A DNA stretch of 28,547 nt from a virus (taxonomy: Duplodnaviria; Caudoviricetes). The notes beneath the pieces are model-generated. The model did no database searches and was not told the origin of the DNA. It saw only the letters and a list, made by a program, of their open reading frames with translations. Positions 6,436-25,531 of the stretch are shown here, one piece after another. Position numbers and translations under genes: made by a program. Location: the IMG/VR virus record IMGVR_UViG_3300021134_000023, positions 1-28,547 of that record. The stretch is one strand, 5' to 3'. Every line of letters begins with the position of its first letter. Within the stretch, counting starts at the first letter, position 1.

Positions 6436-6715
6436 CAACATACTTAAAGAGATTCAGTCTATGCATGACAAGAAGCAAGCTGACTATGGTAAGACAAACG
6501 ATCCGTTTGCGAACGTGCGAGCGAGCGAAGATTTTGGTATTCCAGGTTGGGTTGGTTGCATGACACGTGCCACGGACAAACTTAAACGACTTCAAGCAGC
6601 AGCACGAGGACAAAACCTTGTCAACGAGTCGATAGAAGATTCATTGCTTGATCTTGCTACGTACACCATCATCGCACTCTGTTTGTTTAGGGAGACTAAT
6701 GGCACAGGAAATTGA
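6416..6715 (+). CDS. DUF1599 / nucleotide-modification-associated domain 1 protein
   Basis: 'KKQADYG...DPFAN...R..DKLKRL...ESIEDSLLDLATY'. Start could be ATG 6416 or GTG 6422. Confidence 0.75.
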   Translation: MVVSEFSNILKEIQSMHDKKQADYGKTNDPFANVRASEDFGIPGWVGCMTRATDKLKRLQAAARGQNLVNESIEDSLLDLATYTIIALCLFRETNGTGN

Positions 6716-7214
6716 TTACAAACAAGTTTTATGTTATTTAGTTGACGATGGATTTGTTACGCTTGATCAGGCAAAAGAGGCAGTTAAAAAGTACAAAGCT
6801 CTGAACAAAGGTGTGGTTAGATCACAAAGCTGGATTAAGGCTAGTGAGTTGTTGAAGCATTTGCAAAAGGCGATGGTTGCTAACAACAGGAAGCCATGTC
6901 GAACTAATGAGTCTGCGATTAGTTGCATTGAAAAGATGTTGCGCATTGACAAGTTAACCGTCGAGCAGATTACATCGATGATTGATTGGTCGCAAGGTCA
7001 TGATTTTTGGAGCACAGTTGTTTTGTCACCTGAGAAGCTTCGAAAGAATTACGAACAGATGAACGCACAGCGAGCACGTGATACCAAAGTTGTACCCGTG
7101 ATAGTTAATCGTCAACCTAATCGTGATTGGAAAAAAGAATTAGAACGCCGTAAAGAAGAATCAATACCAATGCCAGCAGACTTTAAGTCTGTATTAAGGA
7201 GAAGTGCAAAATGA
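6699..7214 (+). CDS. Replication protein resembling the C-terminal domain of lambda O
   Basis: 'IEKMLRIDK...IDWSQGHDFWSTVVLSPEKLRKNYEQM' parallels the lambda O C-terminus (W...DNFWSGNVLSPAKLRDKW). GGGAG RBS before ATG 6699. Confidence 0.7.
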   Translation: MAQEIDYKQVLCYLVDDGFVTLDQAKEAVKKYKALNKGVVRSQSWIKASELLKHLQKAMVANNRKPCRTNESAISCIEKMLRIDKLTVEQITSMIDWSQGHDFWSTVVLSPEKLRKNYEQMNAQRARDTKVVPVIVNRQPNRDWKKELERRKEESIPMPADFKSVLRRSAK

Positions 7215-9619: not shown

Positions 9620-9814
9620 TCATTCGAACCATTTGTAAATCATGTAACTCAGAGCGCAAGTTACTGCGATCCAGATCATGATTGCGAATGGGTCGGATGT
9701 ACCTCGGTTGATTTCCCAGTTGCCCGTCCACTTATAGTGGATTTTAAGGGCAACTAGGTAACCTGTAACAACCGAGGCTAGGTGGAGCAACCAGAACTTT
9801 AGATTATTTCCCAT
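9620..9814 (-). CDS. Small 2-TM membrane protein
   Basis: GGAGG RBS and two hydrophobic segments. Last gene of the minus-strand operon. Confidence 0.65.
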   Translation of the reverse strand: MGNNLKFWLLHLASVVTGYLVALKIHYKWTGNWEINRGTSDPFAIMIWIAVTCALSYMIYKWFE

Positions 9815-10632
9815 AGTAGGTTATCCTCCATTTCTTTTGCTGTTTTCTTGCTAATGGTGGTTGAGCCGTAGCACAAGCAGTTAGCGTCTGCTTGGTCACA
9901 TTCTTGACACCAGTAGCAGTCGAAACAGAAGTCCTCAATTACTGGCACATACGATTTGCACGCTTTATTTACACAAGGCAGACTGCGGTCACTGTCAAAC
10001 ATTGCGTACTCGCTAGCCGATGGCTTGGTGTACGTGTAACCGAACGTGCTTTGTAGGTAAGACCTGTTAGAGAACCACAGGTTAGGTCGTTCCTTGTGCC
10101 AATGCCCAAGTCCTTCGCCCAAGATGAGTAGTGGAACCTCAAGCGTGGTCGATAGGATAACAACCTTAGAGCCGTTGCCTTCAACGAAACCTTCTGCAAT
10201 GTCAAAGATGTCTTGATCAGCAAGGGCGTGAACGCCACCGAGCTTGGGCAAGAAATCTTCAGCGAAGATACGTGAGTCACTTCGTGGGTCAGTCTTGGCA
10301 ATGCTGATGGGCAAAATACCGTTGTGAATCATGACAGAATCAGAGTCATCTTGGATGTTAAACGGGTGGCAACCATAAAGATTGACAGCACCATGCGTAG
10401 CGATTCGAGCATGAAAGGCATGACACATAATGTCGTCGCCGTAATGCTTGATGAACGATAGGTAACTGTCGATTGCTTCTTTGGCAACCATGGTCTTGAA
10501 CATTTCAAGTTTGCGACCATCTGGTGTCTGAATGACGAAAGCCCAACCAAATCCGTCTGGATTAGCCTGACAAGATTGCTCAAGTTCCTTACGAGTTGGG
10601 TACTGGTTAAATCCACAAATTGCAATACACAT
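9799..10632 (-). CDS. Class II (Ntn) glutamine amidotransferase
   Basis: Starting at the second Met gives Cys1 (MCIAI). 'NPDGFG', 'HARIATHG', 'HPF', 'HNG', 'SDSR'. Cys-rich C-terminus. Confidence 0.88.
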   Translation of the reverse strand: MCIAICGFNQYPTRKELEQSCQANPDGFGWAFVIQTPDGRKLEMFKTMVAKEAIDSYLSFIKHYGDDIMCHAFHARIATHGAVNLYGCHPFNIQDDSDSVMIHNGILPISIAKTDPRSDSRIFAEDFLPKLGGVHALADQDIFDIAEGFVEGNGSKVVILSTTLEVPLLILGEGLGHWHKERPNLWFSNRSYLQSTFGYTYTKPSASEYAMFDSDRSLPCVNKACKSYVPVIEDFCFDCYWCQECDQADANCLCYGSTTISKKTAKEMEDNLLWEII

Positions 10633-10634
10633 AA

Positions 10635-11831
10635 TCACACCTCCTGTGGTGTTGTAAAGTTGGCACCATCGAGAACACGACGGGCATTAGGGTAAGACCA
10701 AGCGTCGAGTGTCTGAGCGTACGTGAAGAAATTCAACGCGCCGTTCATGACATCATGGCTTGTAAGTTTTGATGTATATAGTCGAGCTGACTCCACAAAT
10801 TCGAGGTCAGCAAGCACACGGCCGAAACGTAAAGATGGTTTCCATATACGTATTTCGATAGTGTGCTCTGGACTCAAATTGATAGCGTCAAAGTGATTGC
10901 TATCATAGTTGTTTTTAGCCAACTTGACTGCGTTGCCTTGCAGACGGTCGAACCTAGCGTAGTTAGATTCACGCCCTGCAACACGTTGCCAGTCGTAAGC
11001 ATTGCGACTGAATAACATGTTGAACACAGCCATGTGGAACTCACTCTTAAATGAGTTCTTGCTGACGTGAATATGTAGTCCACAAGTCTTAGTATTCCAA
11101 GACCTCGCACCCATCTCACCAAGCTTGTCGAGAATGGTTTGAAAGTCGCTAGACAATTCTTTCCATGATTCGAGTGTGCGTGGGTGTGAGACAATCTCGA
11201 ACCCATTAGACAACGATCCATCGTATTTGAGATAGAAATTCTCTTCGTCCTCGTCCCACTCATGGAACGTGTCCGACAGCCCAGCAGTAGAAACACTGCC
11301 ACGGTTTTCTATCTCAAGTTCAATGCCCATGTATGGCACAGACGAGTGAACAGACCTGAAGTCGTCCTCGCCTGTGTCGTGAAAGATGGGCGTTGGTTTG
11401 TAACTGTAGTCATGAATGACACGTGAGCGTGGGTCGCACTCAGTGCAACGGCCACCACGCCATTCATCACAGTTATCACACCAGGTGAAGCGGTTCTCAC
11501 AACATTCATCACAGTAAGCGTCGCCCTGAACAAATGTGTAGTCCCAGTCGTCTGAACACCAACGCTTATCGCACTCCTCACAAAAGTAGGAGTCGTTCAA
11601 CATACAGTCACGACACCATTCTTTTGGATCCTCAACCTGCTGGGTGAACGTGCTGACACGTCCATTAGGCAGGGTGTAGGTTATGGTGTCATGCTTGGAT
11701 TGCATAACCGTATAACGGTTTGAAATTGGTGTTCCACCACCAGAGCGTGGGGTACGCACTAGTTTGTATTCCTCACAATGTTCACATAGGAATGTGGATT
11801 CATTGGGTACAGCCTCTAACTCTGTAGTCAT
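10635..11831 (-). CDS. Phage amidoligase (COOH-NH2 ligase) with N-terminal CxxC repeats
   Basis: 'MGIELEIE', 'KYDGSL..GFEIVSHP', 'TCGLHIHVS', 'TIEIRIW'. Several CxxC pairs at the N-terminus. AGAAAGG RBS. Confidence 0.88.
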   Translation of the reverse strand: MTTELEAVPNESTFLCEHCEEYKLVRTPRSGGGTPISNRYTVMQSKHDTITYTLPNGRVSTFTQQVEDPKEWCRDCMLNDSYFCEECDKRWCSDDWDYTFVQGDAYCDECCENRFTWCDNCDEWRGGRCTECDPRSRVIHDYSYKPTPIFHDTGEDDFRSVHSSVPYMGIELEIENRGSVSTAGLSDTFHEWDEDEENFYLKYDGSLSNGFEIVSHPRTLESWKELSSDFQTILDKLGEMGARSWNTKTCGLHIHVSKNSFKSEFHMAVFNMLFSRNAYDWQRVAGRESNYARFDRLQGNAVKLAKNNYDSNHFDAINLSPEHTIEIRIWKPSLRFGRVLADLEFVESARLYTSKLTSHDVMNGALNFFTYAQTLDAWSYPNARRVLDGANFTTPQEV

Positions 11832-12796
11832 GATGACCTTTCTGTCATGTAGCCCTCTGCTACAACTGACAGTTTATCCGAAACCAGGGCAAAACATAGG
11901 ACGAGCTACTGCACGGCCATGTTTTAATGAGGCCTTGGTCTAAGTCTTTGAAATACATGCCCTTTGCATGGATTTCTTAGACTTGAGACTTGCCGTTCGA
12001 GTTTGTCAAGACCTGGCACAGGTTACCCTGGAATCTTTGATTACACCTGGTGAGATTTTTATAAAAATTGTTGCTGTTGACAATTATTATAAAATATCGA
12101 GACAGGCGCTGGGACAAAGCCCTGATGATGTTGCTTGTCAACATCACAGTAGTTTGGGTCAGCTTTGGGGTTCTTTACAAGGCGAGACACCCTGTAGGAT
12201 TCGTGAAAATCAATGGACATGGTTTGCGTGGCATTGATTTTCGAGCGACTGTCAGTAGTAGTAGTATTATTGGTCCCAGTATCGTCGGGGCCGAAGCGGG
12301 TTTTCCGCGAGGTTTAATAGAGATAGAATCGCCGAGGCTTGGTATAAGGCATTTATTGTTCACCCGCAGATAAATGCATACCAAACGCAGGCGATCAGGC
12401 TTATGCTTAGTAGATGGCCTGTATCAGACAAGCAACCAAGACCGCTGTTGGTCTTGGCTTCGGATTGCTTGGCTGGACAATGGGAGCTTGCTACTTATAA
12501 GTAATGCTCATCAATCCTAATCCCTAATCCCTTCACTTTCATTCCATTCCCCTTGCGTTGGGTGGTTTAGTACTATAATGCAGGCCAAATCCCTCAAGGT
12601 TTGACCGGGTATCTGCCGAGGGGGTATCTAATTTATCGTTAGTTATCTAGGAAATCGTGAACTGTCATTCTCTCCAAACGATCTTGGGGCACACTTCGGC
12701 CGGGGAATGGCAGGGTAGAGAATGACGTGCTTTTTCTCTCAAAAGATTACTTCAAAAGTACTTGCTTTTAGTTACAAGTTGCCCCGCATCACCAAC

Positions 12797-13048
12797 CACA
12801 AAAAAGCTTAGAAATGCTTGTGAGCTTTGTGGGACATCCAACCCGTCATGGACACGAGGCTCGTCTGTGGCAGAGTTCTATTGCCTCGACAGTTCATCAA
12901 GTAGCTAGGCTAAAAGTGCGTGTCCGACCGAATCCCGCTCTAACCGGGTAACTCCGGCGAGTATCTTACGTACAGGGCATTTACATGCATGGCAGTAAGA
13001 CTCACACTCCGGGGCGACTTTCACGCACGACCACTCTCGTTGGTGGTA
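12797..13048 (-). ncRNA. Candidate large structured non-coding RNA (3' end uncertain)
   Basis: Downstream of a leftward promoter, no credible ORF, nested stems, and a GUAA tetraloop only on the minus strand. Confidence 0.45.
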
Positions 13049-13053
13049 TACCA

Positions 13054-13082
13054 ATACTACACCCTCATAGCTCTCAATGCAA
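13054..13082 (-). promoter_or_regulatory. Leftward sigma70/SigA promoter
   Basis: Minus strand TTGCAT-17 nt-TAGTAT. Confidence 0.6.
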
Positions 13083-13104
13083 CCTTTGTCGTAACATTTT
13101 TTAC

Positions 13105-13133
13105 TTGACAGGTGTATGGTGTGTGTATAGAAT
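13105..13133 (+). promoter_or_regulatory. Near-consensus rightward promoter
   Basis: TTGACA-17 nt-TAGAAT. Confidence 0.8.
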
Positions 13134-13139
13134 GTGTAC

Positions 13140-13219
13140 GTAGGAAAATCCTACCGCAGTACTGGACTTCCGAATCCAACACTGGCACTAAGCCCCCCAC
13201 CCGAAACTGGGGGGTTTTG
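13140..13219 (+). ncRNA. Candidate ~80-nt small RNA (two hairpins plus terminator)
   Basis: Starts 7 nt after the -10 box. GTAGGA/TCCTAC hairpin, CAGT..TGGA/TCCA..ACTG hairpin, then AGCCCCCCA/TGGGGGGTT stem with a T run. Confidence 0.55.
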
Positions 13220-13234
13220 TGCTATCCTGGGTAT

Positions 13235-13351
13235 ATGTGTTCAACTTGCGGCTGCGGCCGACCTAAAGACAAGCACGGGGAAAAGACCATCGCCGCTGCA
13301 AATAAGAAGTACGCTCCCAAGCCAAAGGCTAAGGCTCGTAAAAAGAAGTAA
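13235..13351 (+). CDS. 38-aa basic peptide with an N-terminal CxxCGC motif, probably leaderless
   Basis: MCSTCGCGRPK...KARKKK. TGnTATCCT -10 (13223-13228) ends 7 nt before the ATG. Confidence 0.6.
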   Translation: MCSTCGCGRPKDKHGEKTIAAANKKYAPKPKAKARKKK

Positions 13352-13494
13352 TGAAAAAAAAGCGGGATAGTACTGACCTCTCTACTTGGCTTTTTAATCC
13401 CAAGTACAGGCGCAGGGTCAGACGCAAGCGTCGTGGTGTAACTATCACGGTTGGCGGCCAGCCCTTCGAAGCATGGGTAAAATCCCAGTCGTAG
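13351..13494 (+). CDS. 47-aa arginine-rich peptide (not in the ORF track)
   Basis: MKKKRDSTDLSTWLFNPKYRRRVRRKRRGVTITVGGQPFEAWVKSQS. TAATG coupling. Confidence 0.5.
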   Translation: MKKKRDSTDLSTWLFNPKYRRRVRRKRRGVTITVGGQPFEAWVKSQS

Positions 13495-13572
13495 TGCAGG
13501 CTTTGCACCTTGGTGCTCAAAAATTAAAATATTTTTTTAGCGCCCCCCATGTGTTCATGCTATGCTTTTTGT

Positions 13573-13830
13573 ATGAAGAAAAACATTGCACCACACGTCA
13601 CATCACTGCTCACTGGAGCAGGAGCTGTGCTAGCCATTATCCACCCAGGCTTTAAGATCCCTGCAGGAGTTGAGGGTCTTATTGCTTCCCTATGCATATT
13701 GTCAACGACTTTTGTCCAGTCTTTGCACTTGGTCAAAAAAAGTAATCTTGACACAAACATTGCCCTTGCTAACCACTTGGTTAACCAGGCAGTTGCAAAC
13801 ATTAAAACCGATACAGCTACACCTGCGTAA
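13573..13830 (+). CDS. 2-TM membrane protein (holin-like), probably leaderless
   Basis: TGnTATGCT -10 (13561-13566) ends 7 nt before ATG 13573. Two hydrophobic helices. Confidence 0.55.
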   Translation: MKKNIAPHVTSLLTGAGAVLAIIHPGFKIPAGVEGLIASLCILSTTFVQSLHLVKKSNLDTNIALANHLVNQAVANIKTDTATPA

Positions 13831-14078: not shown

Positions 14079-15998
14079 ATGGCTGTAACACCAGTACAAC
14101 GTAAAAAATATTTTGAAGCACGCACGGCAGGATTCTCTATTGCCGAAAGTGCTCGCAAGGCTAAGTTCTCAGAAGCTACTGCTTACCGTGTAGAAAAGGC
14201 TGCTCAGAATCTACGTGCCGACGAAGGCATTGACAGTTCCGCTAGCAATTACCGTGAACTTAAAAAGGAAGCCAAACTACAAGGCCCTATTGCGTATGAC
14301 AATTTGTCAGACGAAGCAAAGCTTGCTCTTGAAGATTTTGGTTATTTCCGTGAACGTTACTTTGGTCGTGTGTCTACTCCGTGGCAGGAAGAAGCAGGTG
14401 TAGCCCTTGTAGGTTTGCTTGAGTCAGATCAAAAAGAATACGTGGTTATGAACATGCCACCTGGTTCTGGTAAGACCACGCTACTTCACGACATAACATG
14501 CTGGGTTATTTGCCGTAACAGATCAACTCGTTTGTTGACTGGTAGTGCAACTATGTCCCTCGCTAAACGAAACCTCATGCGTGTTCGACGTTCATTAGAA
14601 CGTGTGATTCCAGAACAAGCAGATGAAATGCTTAAAGCTCGTGGCCAAGCTATGGATGCTGTAACTACAATGGCGCACGACTTCGGAAGATTCAAACCAC
14701 TTGAAAAAGAACTGTGGACTAATGAAGCTTTTATTGTTATGCAACCAGAGGAGTCTGGTGCTATTAGTGAAAAGGAGCCAACCCTAAGTGCCTATGGTAT
14801 GGATAGTGGTTTCATCGGAGGACGCTTCGATGGCTGTTTCTGGGACGACCTTGTGGACCCTCGCAAGGTACGCTCTTCAGAACAACGAGAAGCAATGGAA
14901 GACTGGTACCAAGACGTTGCAGAAACTCGACTTGAACCTGCAGGTATGCTTGCTCTTATTGGTCAGCGCTTGGCTCCTGACGACCTTTATCGCTTTGCTC
15001 TAGACATGGTGCAACCTCTGGAAGAAGAGGACGAAGATGCCATGGACAAGTTGAGTGAAGAAGAAACGGCATTGCTTCGACGTGACAAGAAATACAAACA
15101 CCTAAAATACAAGGCACACTATGAAGAAAAATGTACACCAGATAATCACAAACGTTCGGCTGTTGCTTACCCCGAAGGTTGTCTCTTGGACCCACGCCGT
15201 CTCGGATGGCGAGACATTTCTAACCTTATGTCCAACCGAGGAGAACGCTTTGATGTTGTATACCAGCAGGAAGACCTGGCTTTAGACGAAGTATTGGTTC
15301 AGAACGAATGGGTTTACGGACACGGCAACAGCCCAGGGTGCATTGACCATGACCGAGATCGATGGGAATTGCCCCCAGGCATTATGGCTAGCGATTGTCT
15401 AGTAGTTGCCACGGCAGACCCTTCTCCAACCAATTACTGGTCTATCCAGTGTTGGATTTACCACCCTGAGTCTCAACAGCGATTCCTTATGGACTTGATT
15501 AGGGCCAAAATGGAAGCTCCGCAGTTCCTCGAATACAATTACAACGAAGGGGAATTTACTGGGGTTATGGAAGATTGGCAGCGTTTATCTATTTCTTTAG
15601 GCTTCCCAATTCAAGTTTGGATTGTTGAACAAAACGCAGCTCAGCGATTTATGTTGCAGTATGACCATTTCAAAAGATGGCGCCAACTGCGTGGTGTAGA
15701 GATTATTCCTCACAATACAACCTCCAATAAATCGGACGCTGAATACGGTGTTACGACGATTTCTCAACATTGGAAGTTTGGTCGTGTACGATTGATGGGT
15801 AAGGGGGAAGGCAAAGTTCGCTCGATGAAACTTATCGACGAGGTGACCCGATACCCCCATGGACGTACCGACGACTGTGTTATGGCGGAATGGTTCTTTG
15901 AATGGAACCTTCCTAACCTTTACATGCCCGTTACAAAAATAGTAAAAGCATGGCGACCAAATTGGGTTAGAAATACCCAACTAGCAAACTTGAGGTAA
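14079..15998 (+). CDS. terL: Terminase large subunit with an N-terminal helix-turn-helix
   Basis: Walker A 'MPPGSGKT', Walker B 'CFWDD', RNase H-fold 'TADPS', 'VEQNAAQ', 'TDDCVMA'. N-terminal 'GFSIAESARKAKFSEATAYR' HTH. Confidence 0.92.
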   Translation: MAVTPVQRKKYFEARTAGFSIAESARKAKFSEATAYRVEKAAQNLRADEGIDSSASNYRELKKEAKLQGPIAYDNLSDEAKLALEDFGYFRERYFGRVSTPWQEEAGVALVGLLESDQKEYVVMNMPPGSGKTTLLHDITCWVICRNRSTRLLTGSATMSLAKRNLMRVRRSLERVIPEQADEMLKARGQAMDAVTTMAHDFGRFKPLEKELWTNEAFIVMQPEESGAISEKEPTLSAYGMDSGFIGGRFDGCFWDDLVDPRKVRSSEQREAMEDWYQDVAETRLEPAGMLALIGQRLAPDDLYRFALDMVQPLEEEDEDAMDKLSEEETALLRRDKKYKHLKYKAHYEEKCTPDNHKRSAVAYPEGCLLDPRRLGWRDISNLMSNRGERFDVVYQQEDLALDEVLVQNEWVYGHGNSPGCIDHDRDRWELPPGIMASDCLVVATADPSPTNYWSIQCWIYHPESQQRFLMDLIRAKMEAPQFLEYNYNEGEFTGVMEDWQRLSISLGFPIQVWIVEQNAAQRFMLQYDHFKRWRQLRGVEIIPHNTTSNKSDAEYGVTTISQHWKFGRVRLMGKGEGKVRSMKLIDEVTRYPHGRTDDCVMAEWFFEWNLPNLYMPVTKIVKAWRPNWVRNTQLANLR

Positions 15999-16001
15999 TC
16001 A

Positions 16002-17894
16002 ATGGCCCTTTCCCCTGATAACGATAAGGCCGCAGGTCAGATCGTAACCATGTACCAGGAGCGCCGCATGAGCCGCAGCGGAATGTTCCGACGCATGCAG
16101 GAAGTACGTGATCACTACAACGGTGACGTAATTGTACCACTACCAGAACTAGACGAGGCAGAAAAGCCCGCTATTCCAAACCTTATCGCTCAGGGTATCG
16201 ACCAATTCGCTATGCGAGTTGCTTCTACCCTACCCAACATTAGTTACCCAGCATTACGCCCTGGTATTCAGGCTTCAGAAAACAAAGCTATGGACCGCAA
16301 GCGTGCTAACTGGGGTTGGTGGGAAATGAACAAGATGGGCACCAAGGTTCGCCGTCGTGCTCGTCACCTTACCGCTTATGGTATGTCCGCAGTATCACTT
16401 TCTCCAGTGTCTCTTGACCCACAGGATAAGCGTCAGATTCCTTTCTGGCGTGTGCGTAACCCTCTTGCCACATTCCCAGCACCAATGGTTGATCCAGACA
16501 ACATGGAACCAGTTGACTGTATCTTTGCGGACCGTCGCCCACTTGGGTGGATGAAAGACAACTATCCAGCACAGATGCGTGCTTTGTATAAGGGTGACAA
16601 GTCAGACACTGACCTATTTGAAATTCTTGAGTATTTAGACGCTGATGAAACAGTGCTTCTTGCTGTTGGTGCAGAAAAGCCAAAGCAAACACCATTCTCG
16701 CAAGACACTGCTAAAAGTGTAGCCTCGCACATTATTCTTGAGCGTATTCCCAACCGTTCAGAGATTTGCCCTGTTGTTATTTCAGGTCGCATTACTCTTG
16801 ACCGTTTGCAGGGTCAGTTTGACCAAATGCTTGGTATGTACCAGCGTGAAGCTAAGTTGGACGCACTTAACACTATTGCTGTGTTCCGTGGTGTGTTCCC
16901 TGACGAATGGGTGGTATCACCTGCCAACGCTGCAACGTCGCCACGTATTGTGCAAGAAGCAGACGGTAAGCAGGGTATCCGAGGAATCTTGGATAAAGGA
17001 CAGATTCAGATTGTTCACCCACAGCAGACACAAGACGTACAGATTTCTCTTAGCAACTTAGAACGTTCACAGCGTCTTACTGCTGGAATCCCTGCAGAGT
17101 TTGGTGGAGAGTCACCTTCTAACATTCGTACGGGACGACGTGGACAAGATGTTATGTCTGCCACTGTTGACATGCCACTTCAGGAATACCAGGAAATTCT
17201 GGCTAACTCTATGGAACTTGAAAACCTACGTGCTGTACGCATTATGAAGTCATACTACGGCTCAAAGCCATCTATGTTTTTTATGGGATCAGACGGTAAG
17301 GTAGAACACCCTGACTACACACCAGACACAACATTTGAAACAACTTTCAGCAACGTTAGTTACCCAATGCCAGGAACCGACATTAACTCAATGACAGTTT
17401 CTATTGGTCAGCTTGTTGGTACAGGAATTATGTCTACTGAGACTGCTCGTATTCTTTCACCAGCTATCAAAGACCCACAGATTGAAGAAGACCGTGTGGT
17501 TCTTGAAGGACTTCGCAAATCACTTCTTACTGGTCTTGAACAGCAAGCAGCGCAGGGACAACTTGACCCATCAATTATTGCTCGCATTGCTAAACTAAAA
17601 GCACAGAGTCACATGACTCTAGAAGATGCAGTTGATAAGATTCACCAAGAGATGCAAGAAGAGCAAGCGGCTAAAGCACAACAGCAACAGCAGCAACCAC
17701 AACCTGGTCAAGCACCTGGTCCTGAAATGCAACCTGGTATGGGAGTTTCAGCAGAAAACCCAGTACAGGGAGCAGCGCCAGCCGGTAAGCCAAGTTTGCA
17801 AGATTTGCTTGGACAGCTTGGTGGCGGTGGAGCACCACCAGCGCCAGGAGCACCAGTCGCACAGGCACCAGCACCAGCACCAGCAGGAGTTTAA
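16002..17894 (+). CDS. Portal protein
   Basis: 630 aa directly after terL, helical, with a Gln/Pro-rich low-complexity C-terminus typical of podovirus-type portals. Confidence 0.8.
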   Translation: MALSPDNDKAAGQIVTMYQERRMSRSGMFRRMQEVRDHYNGDVIVPLPELDEAEKPAIPNLIAQGIDQFAMRVASTLPNISYPALRPGIQASENKAMDRKRANWGWWEMNKMGTKVRRRARHLTAYGMSAVSLSPVSLDPQDKRQIPFWRVRNPLATFPAPMVDPDNMEPVDCIFADRRPLGWMKDNYPAQMRALYKGDKSDTDLFEILEYLDADETVLLAVGAEKPKQTPFSQDTAKSVASHIILERIPNRSEICPVVISGRITLDRLQGQFDQMLGMYQREAKLDALNTIAVFRGVFPDEWVVSPANAATSPRIVQEADGKQGIRGILDKGQIQIVHPQQTQDVQISLSNLERSQRLTAGIPAEFGGESPSNIRTGRRGQDVMSATVDMPLQEYQEILANSMELENLRAVRIMKSYYGSKPSMFFMGSDGKVEHPDYTPDTTFETTFSNVSYPMPGTDINSMTVSIGQLVGTGIMSTETARILSPAIKDPQIEEDRVVLEGLRKSLLTGLEQQAAQGQLDPSIIARIAKLKAQSHMTLEDAVDKIHQEMQEEQAAKAQQQQQQPQPGQAPGPEMQPGMGVSAENPVQGAAPAGKPSLQDLLGQLGGGGAPPAPGAPVAQAPAPAPAGV

Positions 17895-17897
17895 TAA

Positions 17898-18332
17898 ATG
17901 CCAAGAACAGGTAGAGGCGGAACACGCCAAGGAGCAGAAGGTACTGCGTATTCAAACCGCACAGACCTTAACGTACCTAAGATGACGGTTCCGGGACAAG
18001 AGTACGGAATGGCTGGACAGCAGATGCAAGCACAAAGTGCTGTGCCAATGGGATCTACACCCATGCCACAGATGGCGGCACCTGCGCCTGCACCACAAGC
18101 ACAGTCAGTACCAATGCCAGGCTCACTTCCTCACCTTGAGGCAACACAGCGTCCTAACGAACCTGTCACGGCTGGACTTCCTTTTGGGCCTGGACCTGGA
18201 CCTGAAGTTTTGGCTAATCAAGCCGCCCCTAATTCTCCAGTGGGCGCAACCTTTGATGCATTATCAAAGATGCCTAACGTTCCTTCTTCTGTTTCTGCCA
18301 TTGCCGAAGCCTCTCGCCTTCTTGGACTTTAA
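17898..18332 (+). CDS. Pro/Gln-rich post-portal protein
   Basis: 'TQRPNEPVTAGLPFGPGPGPE' segment, which I recognise from genes following the portal in similar phages. Confidence 0.7.
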   Translation: MPRTGRGGTRQGAEGTAYSNRTDLNVPKMTVPGQEYGMAGQQMQAQSAVPMGSTPMPQMAAPAPAPQAQSVPMPGSLPHLEATQRPNEPVTAGLPFGPGPGPEVLANQAAPNSPVGATFDALSKMPNVPSSVSAIAEASRLLGL

Positions 18333-21300
18333 TGGCTGGACAAACATCGTTTCCTAATCCGCAGGATAATAACCCTGCAGACTTGCAAGCACACTTAGCG
18401 TACAAAGCAAGTGATACCGGACGTTTAGCGGACATGGTTAGTGCTAACCCAAAGTTGAATTCTGATCCAGCCGCTGCACATGCAATGTTGCAAGTACCAG
18501 GCATTGATGGTCACACTGCTGGAATGGCAACAAAGTTTATGACACTGTACGCTAATGCTCACAAGGGCATTGGCGAAGCTGTTGGAGGTTCAGGTAATAA
18601 TCCTGCCAAAACAAAAGCCGGTGGATTTTTTGCCAATGCATTTGGTGGCCTTGAAAGGGCATGGAACTGGTTTGCCAACGAAGGCGTAAACGATGGAAGT
18701 TACAGTAACCCACTTGGTTCTGTTTTACAAACAGCATCACAAGCCGCAACTGGAATAACACATGGTGTAACCAATTGGTTTGAAAATTTCCATTTAGGTC
18801 CACAAACTACTTTTCAAGTTCCAGAAGGTGCTGACCCTGCAACATGGCAACCACCATCTCCTGCACAAAATATTAAAAACGATTTAAGTGCTGTAGTTGG
18901 AGCTTCATCTGGTCTTGCTAATTGGGTAAACAATACAAAAAACAGAACTTTAACAACTACTGCTGAAGTATTAACAGGTGGGCAGGTGGGTGCAAGCCAA
19001 ACGCAAGGACCTTTGGCGAACCTATTACCTGGTTGGACTTGGGGTAAAGGAAATGTAGCCAACCTTGACGACGCTTATCACTCTGCCGCAAACGCCATTG
19101 TGGGCGTAGGCAATTCATTAAATCCTTTTGAAACATATAACAACATGGCGCACTTTGCAGCTTTTTACGAATCGCTTGCAAAACGTCGTGGTGCTAGTTA
19201 CGCATTAAGTTATCTTCTTCCATACTTGGCAATTGCCATGGTGACACACAGTGTCATTATGGGCCCAGCTGCTGCAGAAGCCGCAGACCTTGCCGCTTCC
19301 GCAACTGCAGAAGGTGCAACAATAACGCCAGAAGAAAAAGCTTTGATCGAAGAAGCCCAGGGTAAAGAAAAAACTACTTCTATGACAATGGAGCAGACTG
19401 CATCTGGTGCAATTCCAAAAATGGACATTCCAGAATCTGCTATTCGTGGATCAACGGAAGAAGCCGCAGCTAAGGCTGAACAAGTCGCTGCAGATTCAGC
19501 ACAGCAAGCAGCACGTGGTAAAAGTTTTCAATTTGCTAGTGACGTAGCAGGAATTGTAACTAAGCCGCTAAAGCCGTTTATGTCTGTTGCTAACAAACTA
19601 ATGATGCCAGGACAAGACCTGCGTTTGAACATGATGTATTTAACAGCGCACGCTGGTATTAGCCAAGACCCTGAACTAAGTGGTCTTTGGAATCAAACAT
19701 CAAATGGTGTTCCTGTTGACGACCTTGGACGACCAATGGGAAGCGTTGGCAGTGTTATGGCTAACTATCTTGGTCTTGACCATGGTGCGTTTTTTGAAGC
19801 AATTGCTAAACCTATTGATGTTTACGCAAATTACTTTGCCTCTGACCCAATAGGTGCTGTTGGTAGCGTTGTTGGTAAAGCTCTAACATTGGAAGGCCTT
19901 GGCGGTCCGCTAGGCAATTTGTTTGGTGGTATGGGTATTCGCAGTGGCGAAGATGTGTACCGAGTTACTCAACAATATTCACGTGTTGCTCGTGCTTTTC
20001 AATGGATGGCTGACCACAACGCAGCTCAGATCGCAGATCGATTTCGTGGTTTGTTTCCAGGCGAAGAAGGCGCAAAGATTCTTGTAAAACTTGGCGAAGC
20101 TCAATCATTAGGAGAAATACAAGCTATTTGGGCTGACTTGGCCGAAGGTATTGGTTTCTTAAAAAACGAAGCACCGTCTATGACGATGTACGAATTTACC
20201 AAAGCAAAGCTTATGGTTGATGGTTCTTCAATAACCCTTGGTGATGCTATGAACGCAGACATCAAATTTAACCAGCAGATAGAAAACATTGCCAAAGAAG
20301 AAACACCATTCCCTTTCCCAAAGCCAGACAGCACTAATTACATTGTGGGTGAAGGAGAAGTACTAGGACGTATTCGCTCACGCCAAAGGTTTGGTCAATG
20401 GGTTGCTGGGCAACTTCGTCGTGCGGAAGCATACATCAGCGAAGAAACAGGACGTTGGGAAAACTTTACTATTAACCCAGGCAGCAAGAACGCTATCCCT
20501 GCAATTATGGACAGCCTTCTAAAACTTGGTGTACACCGTACAGTTGTGGACACTATCGGTAGTTCGCTACTCACTGCTTCAAAGCAAGAATACGTTAACG
20601 TCGTTCGCTCCGCTTACTACCACGCCATTATGCGTAGAGTAACCGCTGGTATGTCAGAAGCAACTTTTGATTCTGTAAAGGTTGGTCTCGAACAAGACGT
20701 ATTCAAAGAAGTAATGCGTATGACTGGTGCTGATGGCGCTAGTGAAGAAGCAGGTGCAATGGTTCACGGTGAACAAGGTGGCGACCGCTCCCTAACACCA
20801 AAGCCCGGAGGGGCTATTACTAACTCCGCCATTGGAGATACTCAGCTTGGTACACTTCACTTTCCACGCGCACGTGACATGAAGGGTTTTGCTTCACGCT
20901 TGCGAGAATTTGCATTACAACTAACACCTGCAGAAGATCTTGAAGCAAGCGTTGCCGCACGCCTAAGTGTTAAATCACTTGAACAAATTGCTGAATTTCG
21001 CAATGCTGTTCTTGATGGTATTCCAAAAGCACTTGAAGAAGGAATCGAAACTAAAGTTTGGGACGCATCAACTATTGAAATACGTCCAGAAATTACTGAC
21101 TGGAATGCTGAAGCAACCAGGGCAATCACTAATCGCAACAACCTTGTTAAAGAAATTGAAGATAGACAGACATCACTAGATTTTTCTCGTGAAAAATTTC
21201 CTGATGAAATTGCGGCTCTTGAATCATACACAAGCGTATGGGGCAATTTTGCAGGCGGATCGTTTGATGAAGTAAATCAAGTACTCCGTCAAAGCCAATT

Positions 21301-24300
21301 CCTTGAATCAGATATTGCCGACCAATCTGCTGAAACAGCACAAAAAATTCAAAGTCTTATTAAGTCGACTGCTCCGCTTACTGATTCTGTAATGACGTAC
21401 CGAGGTTTGTCCGTTGGGCTTGCAGGTGAGGGTTCTCCTGCAGAAAATTACATCTTGGGCCTAAAAGACCTTAAGCCTGGAGAAACGTTTACTGAAGATG
21501 GATTCTCCTCTACTAGTTTTGACCGAGGCATTGCGCAAAGCTTTACTGAGCGTGGTGGAGAAAAGCTCATGGTTGAAATTGTTAATCAGCCAGGAACACA
21601 AGGTTTGTTTGTTGAAAATGTTTTTAAGCATGAGGTAGACAAAGATTTCCCTACAACAGTAAGTCAAGAAAAAGAATTTATTCTTCCGTTTGGTGCAAAG
21701 TTTAAAGTCTTGGGTGTTGTGCCTTCAGAGGAAACAGTAAATGGTATTCACATTCTTCGTGTTGCACACATACCAGAAGAAGTTGGCGTTAAGGCCGTAT
21801 CTGAAATACCAGAACTTACTAAAATCTCATACGCCACCAAGTCTAGGGAACTTGCTGAGTATACAAGAAATGCAATGTCAATGGGGGAAAAGCTTCCTGG
21901 GGCAATAGACGCTAACAAGTCTTTTGTTCAAGTTTACGACGCCATACGCACACAGGCAGACCACGCACGTGCCGTTAGTGAGCTTTACCGTGAACACCAG
22001 ACTATTCTAAAAGACTTTGACAGAGGCGTTATTAACGCCGATGAGTACAGAGTTTTGTCTGGTCAGCTAGACCACGCATCACCAGACCCATCAATTCGCA
22101 TTACTCAAATGACGCCTGAAAACATGCACACACTTATGGGTGAAAAGCATGCCCTAGATGACGCAATGACCAAATTGACCGTTCGACTTCAAGGTAACGC
22201 CATTGATGAAAAAGCACTTATCCAACACGTTCGTGATTACGAAAAAGCTGTTAATGGTGTTGCAAACATTGATGAAAAAGCAACAGCTGCATTAGCAAAG
22301 AAACTAGGAAAACTACGTGCAGAGAACCCTCGTTACCGTAATACCTTCCAGGCAGCGGTAGACGCAGGTAACTGGTACGTTAGTAAAATCTTTGCACCTA
22401 TGGCTTTGTTCTCCGGTGGTTGGGCAGAGCGTGTAGGTACAAGTGAGTTTATTCTTCTTTGGCTGCGTGGAGGCGCACAGTCCTCATTGAAAGCAAAGGT
22501 GCTTACTTCATACCTCAAGCACGAAGCAGGTGGTGGCGCTCTTAGTTCTGCTGTAGAAGAAAAACTAAATAACTTTTTACAACGTGATCTTTTTAAGGGA
22601 ACATTCCGAGAAATGCTTAAGCGTGATGATTTAGGCTTTGACCAAAAGCTGGCTTCTTCATTTGGACGATTTGTTGCTTCAACTATCCTCGAAGCACGTG
22701 ACATAGCTGGCGGAGTTCTTCACGGTATTGAAGGGAACGTAATCAATTGGGACGCTCGTACCGAACGAATGGTTGAGAACTTCTCCGAAGCAATGTTGGA
22801 TTTTGGACGTAATGGTTTGCCAATGCACGTTCACAGCCAGACTGTTGACATCTTTGACTCTGACATTACAGCGTCTCGTATGGCCTACGGTGATGACGGG
22901 CATGGCAACCAAACTATTAGCAACCGTTACGAAAACAGTTCTTTCCGAGCAGGTAATGCTGGAGACAAGAATTACATAACTGGACTTCGTGGCGCTCTTG
23001 GCCGTCTTTACACAGACAATTTCTTACGCCCTGCAACACAAGATATGCGTGATCTTCTTATTAAATACGGACGTGAGAATTCTACTGACGAACAGTTGAT
23101 GACTAACAGTGAATACAGATTCCTAAGACGAGGCGTCAACACTGTTAAGACAGACACAGAAGCCGAAGCTTTAATGCAAAACATTTCTCGCACAGCTTTT
23201 GAAACAATTGAATCAATGCCTCCTTCTGAACTTGAACGATTTGACCGTCACCTTAATAAGAGCAAGGTAGCTAAGACAGATGAAGAAGTTTACGCTACAT
23301 TAAGCGCAAACGAAAAAACACGTGTCGACCTTATGAACCCACGTCAGCGTCAAATTTTCTACGCACACAAAGACTGGGCAGACAACATTGCTTACCACGT
23401 TTTCCACACAGTTGCCGGTAGAGACGCCACAGGTGCATGGAAGGTTCACGCTCAGCTCGTTGAGCAGGCAGGGACTGGACAAGTTAAAAACGTTGCAGAC
23501 CTAGAGAACGACGTTAAGCGTTTTGCTAAGAGTTCTGAACCACGTGGCATTGCTATGGAAGCTTTGTCAGAAGGTTCAGGTAAGCGTCGTGCTATGGCTG
23601 CTAACTTCTTGACTGAAGTTTCCAACAAGGGACACGCTGCAATCCTTGGTCCAATTGTAAACACTTACGTTCGTGACCACAACTACCTGATGCTTTACGA
23701 CCAAGAAATGGAAAAACTACGTGCCTCTGAAGAAGCAGGCATTATTGATCACGAATCTGCAAAAGCTAAGGCTCATGAAGCAACGACAATTAAAATGTCT
23801 AAGTTTGTCCACAACCCACTTGACAAAACGGTTCTTGAACAGAACATGCGTGTTGTTGCTCCGTTCTACTTTGCGCAAAACCAGGCATGGCGTCGTGCTT
23901 TAAGAATGTTCCGTGACGACCCAGGTGCTTTTGAAAAGTACATGCGTGTTTGCCTTGCTACAACAAACTTTGTTTCCGTTCAAGCTTCTGGTTCTGGCGG
24001 TGGAATTGTTAACGTACCAGGAACCGAGTTCATGGGTGCTTTGGCAGGTCTTGGAACCGGCTTTGGTTCTGACATGCTTGGCAAACTTTCTATGGGTCTT
24101 GCTATTGACCCAGGTTCTGTTTCTTCTATTATTCCCACGGGTAGCGAAGCAGGAATGGGAATTTTGGGTAGCGTGATGCGCCCAGCGGTTGGACCCTTGA
24201 TTTCTTTGCCACTTAAAGAAGCAAGCAATTGGTTTGGTCTTGCTCACGTTCCATTTGCCAACAAAGTTGTTCAAGGTATTCTTGGACCAATCTCAGCTAA

Positions 24301-25531
24301 CAGCACATTGTTTAGTGAACTTGTACCTTCAACCGTTGCTCGTAACACTGTTGACCTTGCTGAAGCAATTCTTAATCAAAACAACTCAAGTTTTGGTTCT
24401 GCCAACATTTATGTTATTAACAACGCTGTAGACAACCTTTCTAAGAAAATCTACGGAGATTACTACAACAAATTAATTAAGGCAGGAATGTCAACATCAC
24501 AGGCTGCTACATACGCCCGTGCCGCTACGGATCAGAAAGTTGCTCAAGACATGAGTGACCCCAAGTTCCGTGATGAGTTTATGCACCAAGCTCACATGGC
24601 TTCTGTATTCCTTTATGCAGTCAAAGCGGTAATTGGATTTGGTGCGCCATTTGCTACAAGCGTTCAACAACAGTTTTCAATGAACCCGCAATTCCAGCAA
24701 CTGCTTAACGAAACCAAAAAAGTTAAGCAACCAGATGGAACGTTCAAAGATGTACCTGTTTACACATTTGAGCAAGCTGCTACTGAATTTGCCAACAGGT
24801 ACCCTAATCACATTTACGACATTGTTTCGCACACAATGAGCAAGGGTTCTTCGTACTCTGAAACAACATCAGCTCTAGATCTATTGCAGAACCACTATTG
24901 GATTGCAAAGCAGTACCCATACGCTGCAGCATACCTAGTCAACCGCAGTACAGCCTATTCACCACAGGCGTACCAGTTGGAGCTTGCTGCTGGGCTTCGT
25001 GCTCGTTACTCACCAGATGAATACTACAACCAACTTCAAATTGCTAACGGTAATGATTTCTATTACAACTGGCTTAAAAAGGAATACCCAACAGAAGTCA
25101 ATGGACAGCCCGTTGGTGGAAATATTGGATACGAAAACTACAAACTTCTTACTAACGCCGCAAAGCAATACGGCCGTCTTGAAAACCCAATTTGGTACGC
25201 ATCGTTTGAAGGTGGAAACAACACGTTCTACAACGAAGGACAAGCCATTCAGCAGATGAAAACAATGTTGGCAGACACCAACGTACCTAATTCTGTTTTT
25301 GGTGGAACGCAAAACCGTACCATGTACCAAGACCTTATTGATGCGTATGACGTTACTGTTGCCGAATACAAGGGTGCCGGTAGTTCAAAGGTGCAAAGCA
25401 TTATTGAACAAGGTTGGTACAACGAAATGACCAAAGCTGCTCAAGCCACGGACGCCAATGGCAACCCGCTTATTGCTCCTGCACTTTCTTACTTCATGAC
25501 ATCGGTTCTTAGAAACCTACCAACTAAATAG
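18332..25531 (+). CDS. Giant (2399 aa) probable internal virion/ejection protein with an embedded ADP-ribosyltransferase domain
   Basis: Uninterrupted 7.2 kb ORF in the head module. VIP2/Alt-type motifs YRG (R1024), STS (1060-1062) and EKE (1113-1115). Confidence 0.8.
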   Translation: MAGQTSFPNPQDNNPADLQAHLAYKASDTGRLADMVSANPKLNSDPAAAHAMLQVPGIDGHTAGMATKFMTLYANAHKGIGEAVGGSGNNPAKTKAGGFFANAFGGLERAWNWFANEGVNDGSYSNPLGSVLQTASQAATGITHGVTNWFENFHLGPQTTFQVPEGADPATWQPPSPAQNIKNDLSAVVGASSGLANWVNNTKNRTLTTTAEVLTGGQVGASQTQGPLANLLPGWTWGKGNVANLDDAYHSAANAIVGVGNSLNPFETYNNMAHFAAFYESLAKRRGASYALSYLLPYLAIAMVTHSVIMGPAAAEAADLAASATAEGATITPEEKALIEEAQGKEKTTSMTMEQTASGAIPKMDIPESAIRGSTEEAAAKAEQVAADSAQQAARGKSFQFASDVAGIVTKPLKPFMSVANKLMMPGQDLRLNMMYLTAHAGISQDPELSGLWNQTSNGVPVDDLGRPMGSVGSVMANYLGLDHGAFFEAIAKPIDVYANYFASDPIGAVGSVVGKALTLEGLGGPLGNLFGGMGIRSGEDVYRVTQQYSRVARAFQWMADHNAAQIADRFRGLFPGEEGAKILVKLGEAQSLGEIQAIWADLAEGIGFLKNEAPSMTMYEFTKAKLMVDGSSITLGDAMNADIKFNQQIENIAKEETPFPFPKPDSTNYIVGEGEVLGRIRSRQRFGQWVAGQLRRAEAYISEETGRWENFTINPGSKNAIPAIMDSLLKLGVHRTVVDTIGSSLLTASKQEYVNVVRSAYYHAIMRRVTAGMSEATFDSVKVGLEQDVFKEVMRMTGADGASEEAGAMVHGEQGGDRSLTPKPGGAITNSAIGDTQLGTLHFPRARDMKGFASRLREFALQLTPAEDLEASVAARLSVKSLEQIAEFRNAVLDGIPKALEEGIETKVWDASTIEIRPEITDWNAEATRAITNRNNLVKEIEDRQTSLDFSREKFPDEIAALESYTSVWGNFAGGSFDEVNQVLRQSQFLESDIADQSAETAQKIQSLIKSTAPLTDSVMTYRGLSVGLAGEGSPAENYILGLKDLKPGETFTEDGFSSTSFDRGIAQSFTERGGEKLMVEIVNQPGTQGLFVENVFKHEVDKDFPTTVSQEKEFILPFGAKFKVLGVVPSEETVNGIHILRVAHIPEEVGVKAVSEIPELTKISYATKSRELAEYTRNAMSMGEKLPGAIDANKSFVQVYDAIRTQADHARAVSELYREHQTILKDFDRGVINADEYRVLSGQLDHASPDPSIRITQMTPENMHTLMGEKHALDDAMTKLTVRLQGNAIDEKALIQHVRDYEKAVNGVANIDEKATAALAKKLGKLRAENPRYRNTFQAAVDAGNWYVSKIFAPMALFSGGWAERVGTSEFILLWLRGGAQSSLKAKVLTSYLKHEAGGGALSSAVEEKLNNFLQRDLFKGTFREMLKRDDLGFDQKLASSFGRFVASTILEARDIAGGVLHGIEGNVINWDARTERMVENFSEAMLDFGRNGLPMHVHSQTVDIFDSDITASRMAYGDDGHGNQTISNRYENSSFRAGNAGDKNYITGLRGALGRLYTDNFLRPATQDMRDLLIKYGRENSTDEQLMTNSEYRFLRRGVNTVKTDTEAEALMQNISRTAFETIESMPPSELERFDRHLNKSKVAKTDEEVYATLSANEKTRVDLMNPRQRQIFYAHKDWADNIAYHVFHTVAGRDATGAWKVHAQLVEQAGTGQVKNVADLENDVKRFAKSSEPRGIAMEALSEGSGKRRAMAANFLTEVSNKGHAAILGPIVNTYVRDHNYLMLYDQEMEKLRASEEAGIIDHESAKAKAHEATTIKMSKFVHNPLDKTVLEQNMRVVAPFYFAQNQAWRRALRMFRDDPGAFEKYMRVCLATTNFVSVQASGSGGGIVNVPGTEFMGALAGLGTGFGSDMLGKLSMGLAIDPGSVSSIIPTGSEAGMGILGSVMRPAVGPLISLPLKEASNWFGLAHVPFANKVVQGILGPISANSTLFSELVPSTVARNTVDLAEAILNQNNSSFGSANIYVINNAVDNLSKKIYGDYYNKLIKAGMSTSQAATYARAATDQKVAQDMSDPKFRDEFMHQAHMASVFLYAVKAVIGFGAPFATSVQQQFSMNPQFQQLLNETKKVKQPDGTFKDVPVYTFEQAATEFANRYPNHIYDIVSHTMSKGSSYSETTSALDLLQNHYWIAKQYPYAAAYLVNRSTAYSPQAYQLELAAGLRARYSPDEYYNQLQIANGNDFYYNWLKKEYPTEVNGQPVGGNIGYENYKLLTNAAKQYGRLENPIWYASFEGGNNTFYNEGQAIQQMKTMLADTNVPNSVFGGTQNRTMYQDLIDAYDVTVAEYKGAGSSKVQSIIEQGWYNEMTKAAQATDANGNPLIAPALSYFMTSVLRNLPTK

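Follow-up and report, generated by a model that had tools for sequence, protein, structure and literature searches.

A conserved structured RNA of freshwater phages with a tRNA-like 5' half

The 28.5-kb virus record analysed here at its full length (the window) carries on its minus strand the gene of a structured non-coding RNA (Table 1). We are highly confident that this gene exists and that its product has a single conserved fold. In our assessment the RNA represents a new family that lies outside every family tested and is a variant on two known kinds, tRNA mimics and large phage RNAs. The PHROGs search of the window identified terL and the portal protein gene (16002–17894), and Pfam recognised WhiB, SSB, ERF and the amidoligase/GATase pair among the encoded proteins; the two ORFs scanned in the region 11832–13548 matched no family in either collection. 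The best matches of terL among cultured phages are Streptomyces phages (29% identity), and a terL 50% identical to that of the window is contained in an Acidimicrobiaceae bin; together with the presence of WhiB, these similarities suggest an actinobacterial host. Among the sequencing runs containing window DNA, 19 of 20 are labelled freshwater, lake or sediment, and no RNA run is among those listed.

Table 1. Features of the window, with positions counted from its first nucleotide
Feature	Position	Strand	Basis or remark
DnaD/O-like C-terminal domain protein	6648–7214	+	no 10-mer repeats in the gene
Amidoligase and class II glutamine amidotransferase (GATase) pair	9799–11831	-	Pfam
Fixed-spacing DNA element	12600–12676	.	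likely terminus, packaging (pac) or origin site
Structured non-coding RNA, ~266 nt	12782–13047	-	conservation; 3' end placed by conservation
3' domain: P9 (3 bp, loop GGGUUGGAU), variable P10 hairpin, tail UUGGUGAUGCGGGG	12782–12847	-	common to all three subtypes
P5 domain: P5 around variable P6, optional P7/P8	12850–12925	-	two-sided change in 5/7 P5 pairs
AGUUA linker and P4 hairpin with invariant GUUAGAG loop	12934–12953	-	D-arm-like sequence, folded as P4
P3: acceptor-like P3a, internal loop, P3b, variable extension	12954–13012	-	P3a 100%, P3b 94% paired
P2: 3-bp hairpin with T-loop-type loop U-G-N-R-A-G-U (T-arm-like)	13014–13026	-	100% paired
P1: hairpin, 5 bp, 8-nt loop	13030–13047	-	ACCAC/GTGGT, 13047–13043/13034–13030; two-sided change in 3/5 pairs
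-10 hexamer TAGTAT	13054–13059	-	sequence; conserved in homologues; predicted start ~13047
-35-like hexamer TTGCAT, weak (3 of 6)	13077–13082	-	sequence
Motif GTTACG, possible activator site	13090–13095	-	loose pattern in 31/37 upstream regions
Divergent small RNA, 84 nt	13140–13223	+	own promoter 13105–13133; terminator-like hairpin; z = -5.49
Terminase large subunit (terL)	14079–15998	+	phrog_38, E 5e-51; anchor for finding relatives

With terL as the anchor, 80 loci were collected, 58 of which match the region 12916–13050 on the same strand and the same side, and conservation among them has two maxima, one over the RNA itself and one over the DNA element of Table 1. Two exact-pattern scans gave 56 viral and 48 metagenome loci; the former are nearly all contigs already collected via terL, and 47 of the latter match the profile strongly, the remaining one (L158) being a short chance match. 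The alignment comprises 37 sequences of <95% identity (mean 52%) chosen from 60 distinct full-length copies.

Folding of the single sequence is uninformative for the window RNA (z = -1.33, with 22 of 200 shuffles folding equally well, and z from -0.2 to -1.1 for sub-domains folded singly), and it is the homologues that decide. Across the 37 of them, 8 helices with 33 pairs have 95.2% of cells paired and two-sided change in 23 of the 33 pairs; none of 500 shuffles matched this fold, slid controls reached 32–46%, and RNAalifold by itself recovers P1, P2, P3a, P4, P7 and P8. In a terL tree that includes 32 of the 37 sequences, two-sided changes recur in P2 (10 changes of the middle pair, which is G-C in 22 homologues and C-G in 15), P4 (5 and 8) and P5 (7), counts that recombination could inflate. 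P4 is 100% paired with two-sided change in 3 of 4 pairs, P5 consists of GGACACG/CGTGTCC (12925–12919/12856–12850), and the distal P3 helix is missing in three sequences (L032, L037, L228). Such strong covariation bears out the view, reached earlier from the window's letters and its ORF list (the sequence-only reading), of a large structured RNA, for which covariation had been named as one of the checks. All strings quoted in that reading are present where it placed them; its 5' ACCAC/GTGGT hairpin is P1, and its CCGG/CCGG pairing was upheld as 13012–13009/12957–12954.

Beyond these helices, P9 was recovered at its homologous site in 32 of the 33 sequences that were parsed, in four fully compensated forms (4 of the 37 sequences were omitted and L037 was mis-parsed); since the parser required a loop beginning with GG, the parse is no evidence for that loop feature. 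A candidate pseudoknot may join 12929–12927 with 12860–12858, one pair of which changes from G-C to A-U in L032 and, by eye, likewise in L076 and in type II. The exhaustive scan of 6328 free column pairs identified only a P6 base pair, the pair 13013/12952 (changed in 2 sequences, probably by one event) and four further pairs with two two-sided cells each. The four GG tracts of the 3' domain might form a two-tier G-quadruplex, and the P9 loop might pair with the tail, both as leads only. Leads of the same rank are a possible resemblance of the P4 loop to a loop of RNase P and of P2 to the T-loops of riboswitches and group II introns.

The sequence-only reading had further proposed that the RNA alternates between two mutually exclusive folds. 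The long-range helix on which one of them depended (13028–13022/12922–12916) shows two-sided change in none of its 7 pairs, its central pair is unpaired in 22 of 37 homologues, and 500 of 500 shuffles are equally good in terms of cells paired. The pairing proposed as its competitor proved to be the conserved helix P5 and not an alternative fold. Thus, there is one conserved fold, and the idea of a switch loses its partner helix. The TCTTAC/GTAAGA stem, the GNRA hairpin and the CCACAAA/TTTGTGG stem (12832–12826/12802–12796) can indeed be drawn in the window, but each occurs in only 3 of 37 homologues, within variable extensions, the first two in that of P3. A second candidate switch, between the 3' tail and the C-run at P2/P3, was rejected (cognate -11.04 vs permuted -10.96 kcal/mol, p = 0.38, 33 sequences). 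A two-state riboswitch or leader for the leftward genes is therefore extremely unlikely: both helices are drawable in the window sequence and the long-range one belongs to its predicted minimum-energy fold, but this helix lacks covariation, the tail/C-run candidate gave the p value just quoted, and the downstream genes lie ~1 kb away. The amidoligase/GATase pair is inverted in L192, L199, L203, L232, L035 and L070 and absent in others, and such variation in presence and orientation of the genes past the DNA element argues against a leader role. Neither two conserved alternative pairings nor a consistent gene directly downstream, as expected of a riboswitch or attenuator, was found.

Transcription probably begins at ~13047. 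The leftward TTGCAT-17-TAGTAT promoter of the sequence-only reading holds in its orientation and in its -10 box, a TAnnnT sequence being placed 4–8 nt ahead of P1 in 34 of 37 homologues, but its -35 hexamer is weak and scores at least 4 of 6 in only 15 of 37. With its -35 matching 3 of 6, the promoter at 13082–13054 was not listed by the promoter scan of the window, which returned 4 sites where 5.1 were expected. In 2 of 4 runs the match of relatives' DNA contigs ends at 13048. The terminator scan of the window found no terminator 3' of the RNA. The lower end of the previously delimited span (12797–13082) truncates the conserved tail at 12795–12782. Homologues of type I, to which the window RNA belongs, are ~200–275 nt long; P3 tolerates indels of any length, and the longest ORF may have as few as 20 or as many as 73 codons, which shows the element to be non-coding. 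The region has no ORF of conserved length; a conserved ORF had been named in the sequence-only reading as one finding that would refute the RNA.

No Rfam family matches the window, and none matches over the RNA in 30 homologous loci (E<=1), in agreement with the claim that the family is undescribed. A literature search for such RNAs and for phage tRNA mimics, with most subscription journals outside its coverage, found no description of this one. Fremin et al. 2023 (PMC10690425) predicted, according to the available part of the article, 8495 short structures (29–151 nt) from IMG/VR; in four of its supplements neither the motifs nor the contigs of the RNA family were found, and a fragment of the RNA may be among those structures. 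The earlier suggestion of a ribozyme fared poorly, as no known ribozyme model matches the RNA; in the region 11700–13700 there was no match at E<=10 to RNase P RNA, group I/II introns or known self-cleaving ribozymes. The many invariant unpaired bases, the candidate pseudoknot and the hammerheads found elsewhere in two relatives would suit a new ribozyme, self-processing or trans-cleaving, but P7/P8 and distal P3 are optional and no flanking exons or conserved cut site were seen, and we regard this possibility as highly unlikely.

The 5' half of the RNA begins with P1, continues with a hairpin that has a T-loop and with an acceptor-like stem closed by a loop, and ends in a segment resembling a D arm; this is the serial order of a tRNA opened between its D and anticodon arms, i.e. 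circularly permuted. In a test devised after the resemblance had been noticed, the 37 sequences, which are related to one another, agree with tRNA at a mean of 18.1 of the 21 hallmark positions. The unconstrained count is near chance (18.2 vs 17.0 in shuffles); if T-stem and acceptor pairing is required in the tRNA register, shuffles reach 14.2 +/- 1.2, only 2 of 555 attain 18, and the constrained score of the window (17) is reached by 4 of 300. A model built without tRNA input had as its two best host-genome matches tandem tRNA-Arg/tRNA-His junctions. The same class of tandem-tRNA false positives is described for YrlA covariance models in the available part of Chen et al. 2014 (PMC4201824). 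We consider it probable that the 5' half descended from a tRNA.

The present fold, however, is not a tRNA. The elbow bases are not kept (U55 in 2/37, C56 in 5/37, R15 in 13/37), the tertiary pairs 18-55, 19-56 and 15-48 are not maintained, and the RNA has no CCA end. A tRNA D stem was rejected, as this alternative shows no two-sided change and is excluded by the covarying P4; so was a 5-bp T stem, in which pairs 49-65 and 50-64 are broken in 27/37 and 36/37 sequences, leaving a stem of 3 bp. ARAGORN, run on the window and on 47 flanking loci, identified no tRNA, and with the broken T stem and the 8-nt P1 loop this dismisses a tRNA or permuted tRNA gene. A one- or two-piece tmRNA was dismissed as well (nothing from ARAGORN or Rfam, no ORF of conserved length).

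The closest parallel in architecture that we considered is provided by the YrlA Y RNAs, in which, according to the available part of PMC4201824, an upstream hairpin, a T arm, a loop-closed acceptor-like stem and a D-arm-like segment follow one another. On that partial account the RNA shares with them the serial order, with T, acceptor-like and D segments all present, as well as occurrence in actinophages and a covariance model that cross-reacts with tandem tRNAs; it differs by having P4 in place of the D stem, an extra 150-nt 3' domain, and elbow and Levitt pairs that are not kept. The same source, as far as available, places YrlA genes within ~4 kb of Ro60 (TROVE) and a GNCGAAN0-1G motif near their 5' end. 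Ro60 (TROVE, PF05731) was found in none of 14 related virus records, in none of one bacterial genome bin and in none of 28 window ORFs, and the motif occurs anywhere in only 2 of 37 sequences, that of the window not among them. Lacking the Ro60 gene, the Ro60 motif and the elbow pairs, the RNA is not a Y RNA. The Rfam model RF02565, which is YrlB and not YrlA, gave no match in 5 records.

The RNA occurs in 53 of 53 loci, near-duplicates included, whose terL is at least 65% identical to that of the window and which reach the downstream DNA element (50 with type I, 3 with type II). At 57–61% terL identity, 5 of 11 loci carry a diverged type III and 6, two of them near-identical and all with absences also read by eye, keep the DNA element without the RNA; a locus at 50% identity lacks the RNA too. 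Type II retains the 3' domain as well as P4 and the P5 junction, and the covariance model detected it (L080, E 4e-7). Type III has the same place, orientation, P5-like junction and 3' motif (stem, GGGUGGAU loop, stem, hairpin, UUGGUGA, G-run) and no recognisable tRNA-like half; its homology, with a cross-match of only E 0.04, appears to rest mainly on the 3' domain. A scan of viral contigs for the 3' motif gave 18 matches, 9 of which are this lineage; the other 9, without terL or DNA element, were read as chance. Neither the RNA nor the DNA element was matched beyond chance in cultured phages, and two partly overlapping samples of 151 host genomes gave only 3 weak matches, two of them tandem tRNAs. 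Across 14 records, no gene family was shared by every RNA-bearing record while missing from every one that lacks the RNA; the nearest was a holin-like ORF (9/10 vs 0/4), whose distribution follows the clade. The type III central module was also seen in a different structured RNA (L351 2479–2539 and L357, on 61- and 149-kb contigs; E 1e-6), behind a promoter-like site of another phage with no terL match within the locus.

The DNA element toward which the RNA points, away from terL, is represented by ~33 distinct copies; its spacing is fixed, and inspection by eye revealed no covarying stems. It is kept down to ~50–57% terL identity, a leftward promoter-like site precedes it in every case, and both persist, by eye, in relatives without the RNA; where the RNA is present, the distance from it to the element is 83–325 nt (45 loci). 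In Beephvirinae (Streptomyces phages), according to the available part of PMC9753666, the terminal repeats are 253 bp long and terL begins at 624, by analogy with which the DNA element may mark the genome terminus. DNA contigs run across the element, and GC-skew turning points are not consistently placed at it. A 20-nt stretch with 17 matches to its 3' part was noticed by eye in phage FlowerPower (L295 ~8930; near 44930), close to the right end and oriented oppositely with respect to terL, which may be chance.

This location suggests a role in cis during genome maturation, in which the nascent transcript would hold or pause the polymerase at the terminal element for terminase, as in T7, or the RNA would serve as a prohead or terminase scaffold. 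The pRNA of phi29 is likewise the structured product of a gene near a genome end, and a host-type promoter directs its transcription outward, all of which would apply to our RNA; here, in contrast, the terminase is of TerL type, Rfam gives no match, and the RNA is missing from some relatives that have the same terL. A pRNA of the phi29 type would be expected to be an essential part of the packaging motor in all members of its family; the RNA is found in 53/53 near relatives and is lacking in 6/11 distant ones. We know of no conserved folded RNA in the concatemer-junction transcript of T7. For T7, the available part of PMC3276506 describes a polymerase that pauses at the concatemer junction and engages terminase, which sets a precedent for such a role, and the T7/T3 arrangement resembles the present one in that a promoter fires toward a conserved element near a terminal repeat, the latter predicted in our case; it differs in that Pfam named no phage RNA polymerase here. 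The fixed place and orientation in all near relatives, the persistence (by eye) of promoter-like site and element where the RNA is lacking, and the terminal repeats and terL position of the nearest cultured relatives (Beephvirinae, as available in PMC9753666) all speak for a packaging role. Against it stand the loss of the RNA in distant relatives that keep the same terL and element, the variable spacing, and a terminus deduced from a phage of 29% terL identity at a site that DNA contigs cross. In our assessment it is somewhat unlikely, and the strongest rival to the decoy proposed below.

The element could instead be an origin, at which the G-rich 3' end of the RNA would hybridise with the template and prime host-dependent replication as a primer or R-loop RNA. 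Among 109 ORFs of three genomes, Pfam recognised neither a DNA polymerase nor a primase or helicase, the RNA tail is G-rich, and the DnaD/O-like protein is encoded in 8 of 8 type I records, its gene being devoid of 10-mer repeats; but this co-occurrence follows the clade, some relatives lack the RNA, and the GC skew gives no consistent support for an origin at the element. A ColE1-type primer has a fixed geometry between transcript and origin. The spacing of 83–325 nt weakens a primer of this type, the element as an origin being itself putative; the sequence-only reading had suggested a replication primer RNA, and we deem a priming role unlikely.

An ornate RNA-only assembly, forming multimers that sequester or carry other molecules, is suggested by the many short helices, T-loop modules and conserved unpaired loops of this phage-encoded RNA. 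ROOL and GOLLD, in the available part of bioRxiv 10.1101/2024.12.08.627333, are likewise phage-encoded, highly structured and of unknown function, and GOLLD combines a conserved 3' with a variable 5' region, as does our RNA; ROOL was non-essential in one strain. They are, however, ~600–800+ nt long as compared to ~200–360 nt, so that the RNA is under half their size, it has no match to them in Rfam, and they reside in tRNA islands, the RNA beside a predicted genome end. As no tRNA was called by ARAGORN in the 47 flanking loci and no self-complementary loops were noted, we judge such an assembly decidedly unlikely.

The small RNA divergent from the large one consists of a hairpin, a short conserved core and a terminator-like hairpin, and its slot is occupied in relatives by several otherwise unrelated versions that share the core; by eye it is missing from many relatives with the large RNA, and thus appears to be an optional neighbour and not a part of it. 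Antisense pairing with 12933–12926 was rejected, as the 8-nt complement of the window is accompanied by no co-change in relatives. The joint system of large RNA, small RNA and peptide that had been envisaged is not borne out, given the patchy small RNA and a core that does not co-change with the complementary stretch. A peptide of 37 aa (13238–13351, +), rich in Cys and Lys and starting with CxxCGCG, is conserved among many relatives and has no match in Pfam or PHROGs; just downstream of its gene in L070 a tRNA-like sequence, uncalled by ARAGORN, was seen by eye. The 2399-aa protein encoded at 18332–25531 (+) contains an ADP-ribosyltransferase domain (PF03496, residues 974–1133) and is probably a virion protein that is injected and acts on the bacterial host. 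Type II hammerhead ribozymes lie between leftward early genes in two relatives (L092 497–558, -; L334 14419–14480, +), one with the large RNA and one without. The RNA-bearing genome G003 (L320 13024–14923; L321 1080–1155) encodes an RNA ligase, RtcB and tRNA-His, likely a tRNA-repair set.

Our preferred interpretation, to which we assign a probability of about 0.35, is that the RNA is an immediate-early, tRNA-derived decoy acting in trans on a host tRNA-handling factor. Host RNA polymerase would make it from the genome-end region right after infection; the tRNA-derived 5' half would give a compact arm, with the T-loop of P2 docking on the P4 loop, and the G-rich loops of the 3' domain would offer a binding surface, so that the RNA would bind and divert, e.g., a tRNA-cleaving defence or stress protein. 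If the RNA adjoins the physical genome end, then, with no terminator found 3' of it, transcription would run off or cross the terminus. Action in trans is supported by a downstream amidoligase/GATase pair that may lie in either orientation or be absent, and the 6 of 11 loci at 57–61% terL identity that keep the DNA element alone indicate that the RNA is not essential everywhere. The constrained hallmark scores and the tandem-tRNA matches support the decoy, and the tRNA-repair set of G003 hints at tRNA-damage pressure in the lineage. On the other hand, the elbow bases are lost, P4 excludes the D stem, the T stem has 3 bp, CCA is lacking, and the unconstrained hallmark count hardly exceeds that of shuffles. 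Also against the decoy are type III, which lacks the tRNA-like half and leaves the 3' domain as the common part, the presence in 53/53 loci at one fixed place, which resembles a cis-linked core element more than the patchy small RNA does, and RtcB, which the Pfam scans of 3 genomes (that of G003 covering a part) revealed in only 1. T-box riboswitches, as described in the available part of PMC12990946, also combine T-loop modules with a G-rich loop carrying UGG, and in our RNA the UGG of that loop could pair with the CCA end of a tRNA; the RNA lacks a specifier loop, an antiterminator and a downstream gene, and UGG is absent from the loop in L024, L027 and L174. Only tentatively, and with some doubt, do we offer the broader picture of a new class of phage RNA, a Ro60-independent permuted tRNA with a G-rich effector domain, fired from the genome end at entry, that would either disable a host tRNA-dependent defence or stress pathway or hand the terminus to terminase.

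Structured bacterial and phage RNAs of >200 nt are few, and most turned out to be ribozymes, RNP cores or ornate assemblies. The present conserved RNA gene of ~270 bases is carried by a group of freshwater phages. With its unusually clean covariation, its natural deletion variants (short P3, no P7/P8) and three subtypes, which indicate a minimal 3' core, the family is ready for synthesis and probing. Should the decoy interpretation be correct, phages would here counter tRNA-targeting immunity with an RNA, and the YrlA-type permuted tRNA fold would have a second use that does not depend on Ro60; if instead the packaging role is true, RNA-assisted packaging would extend beyond phi29 to TerL phages.
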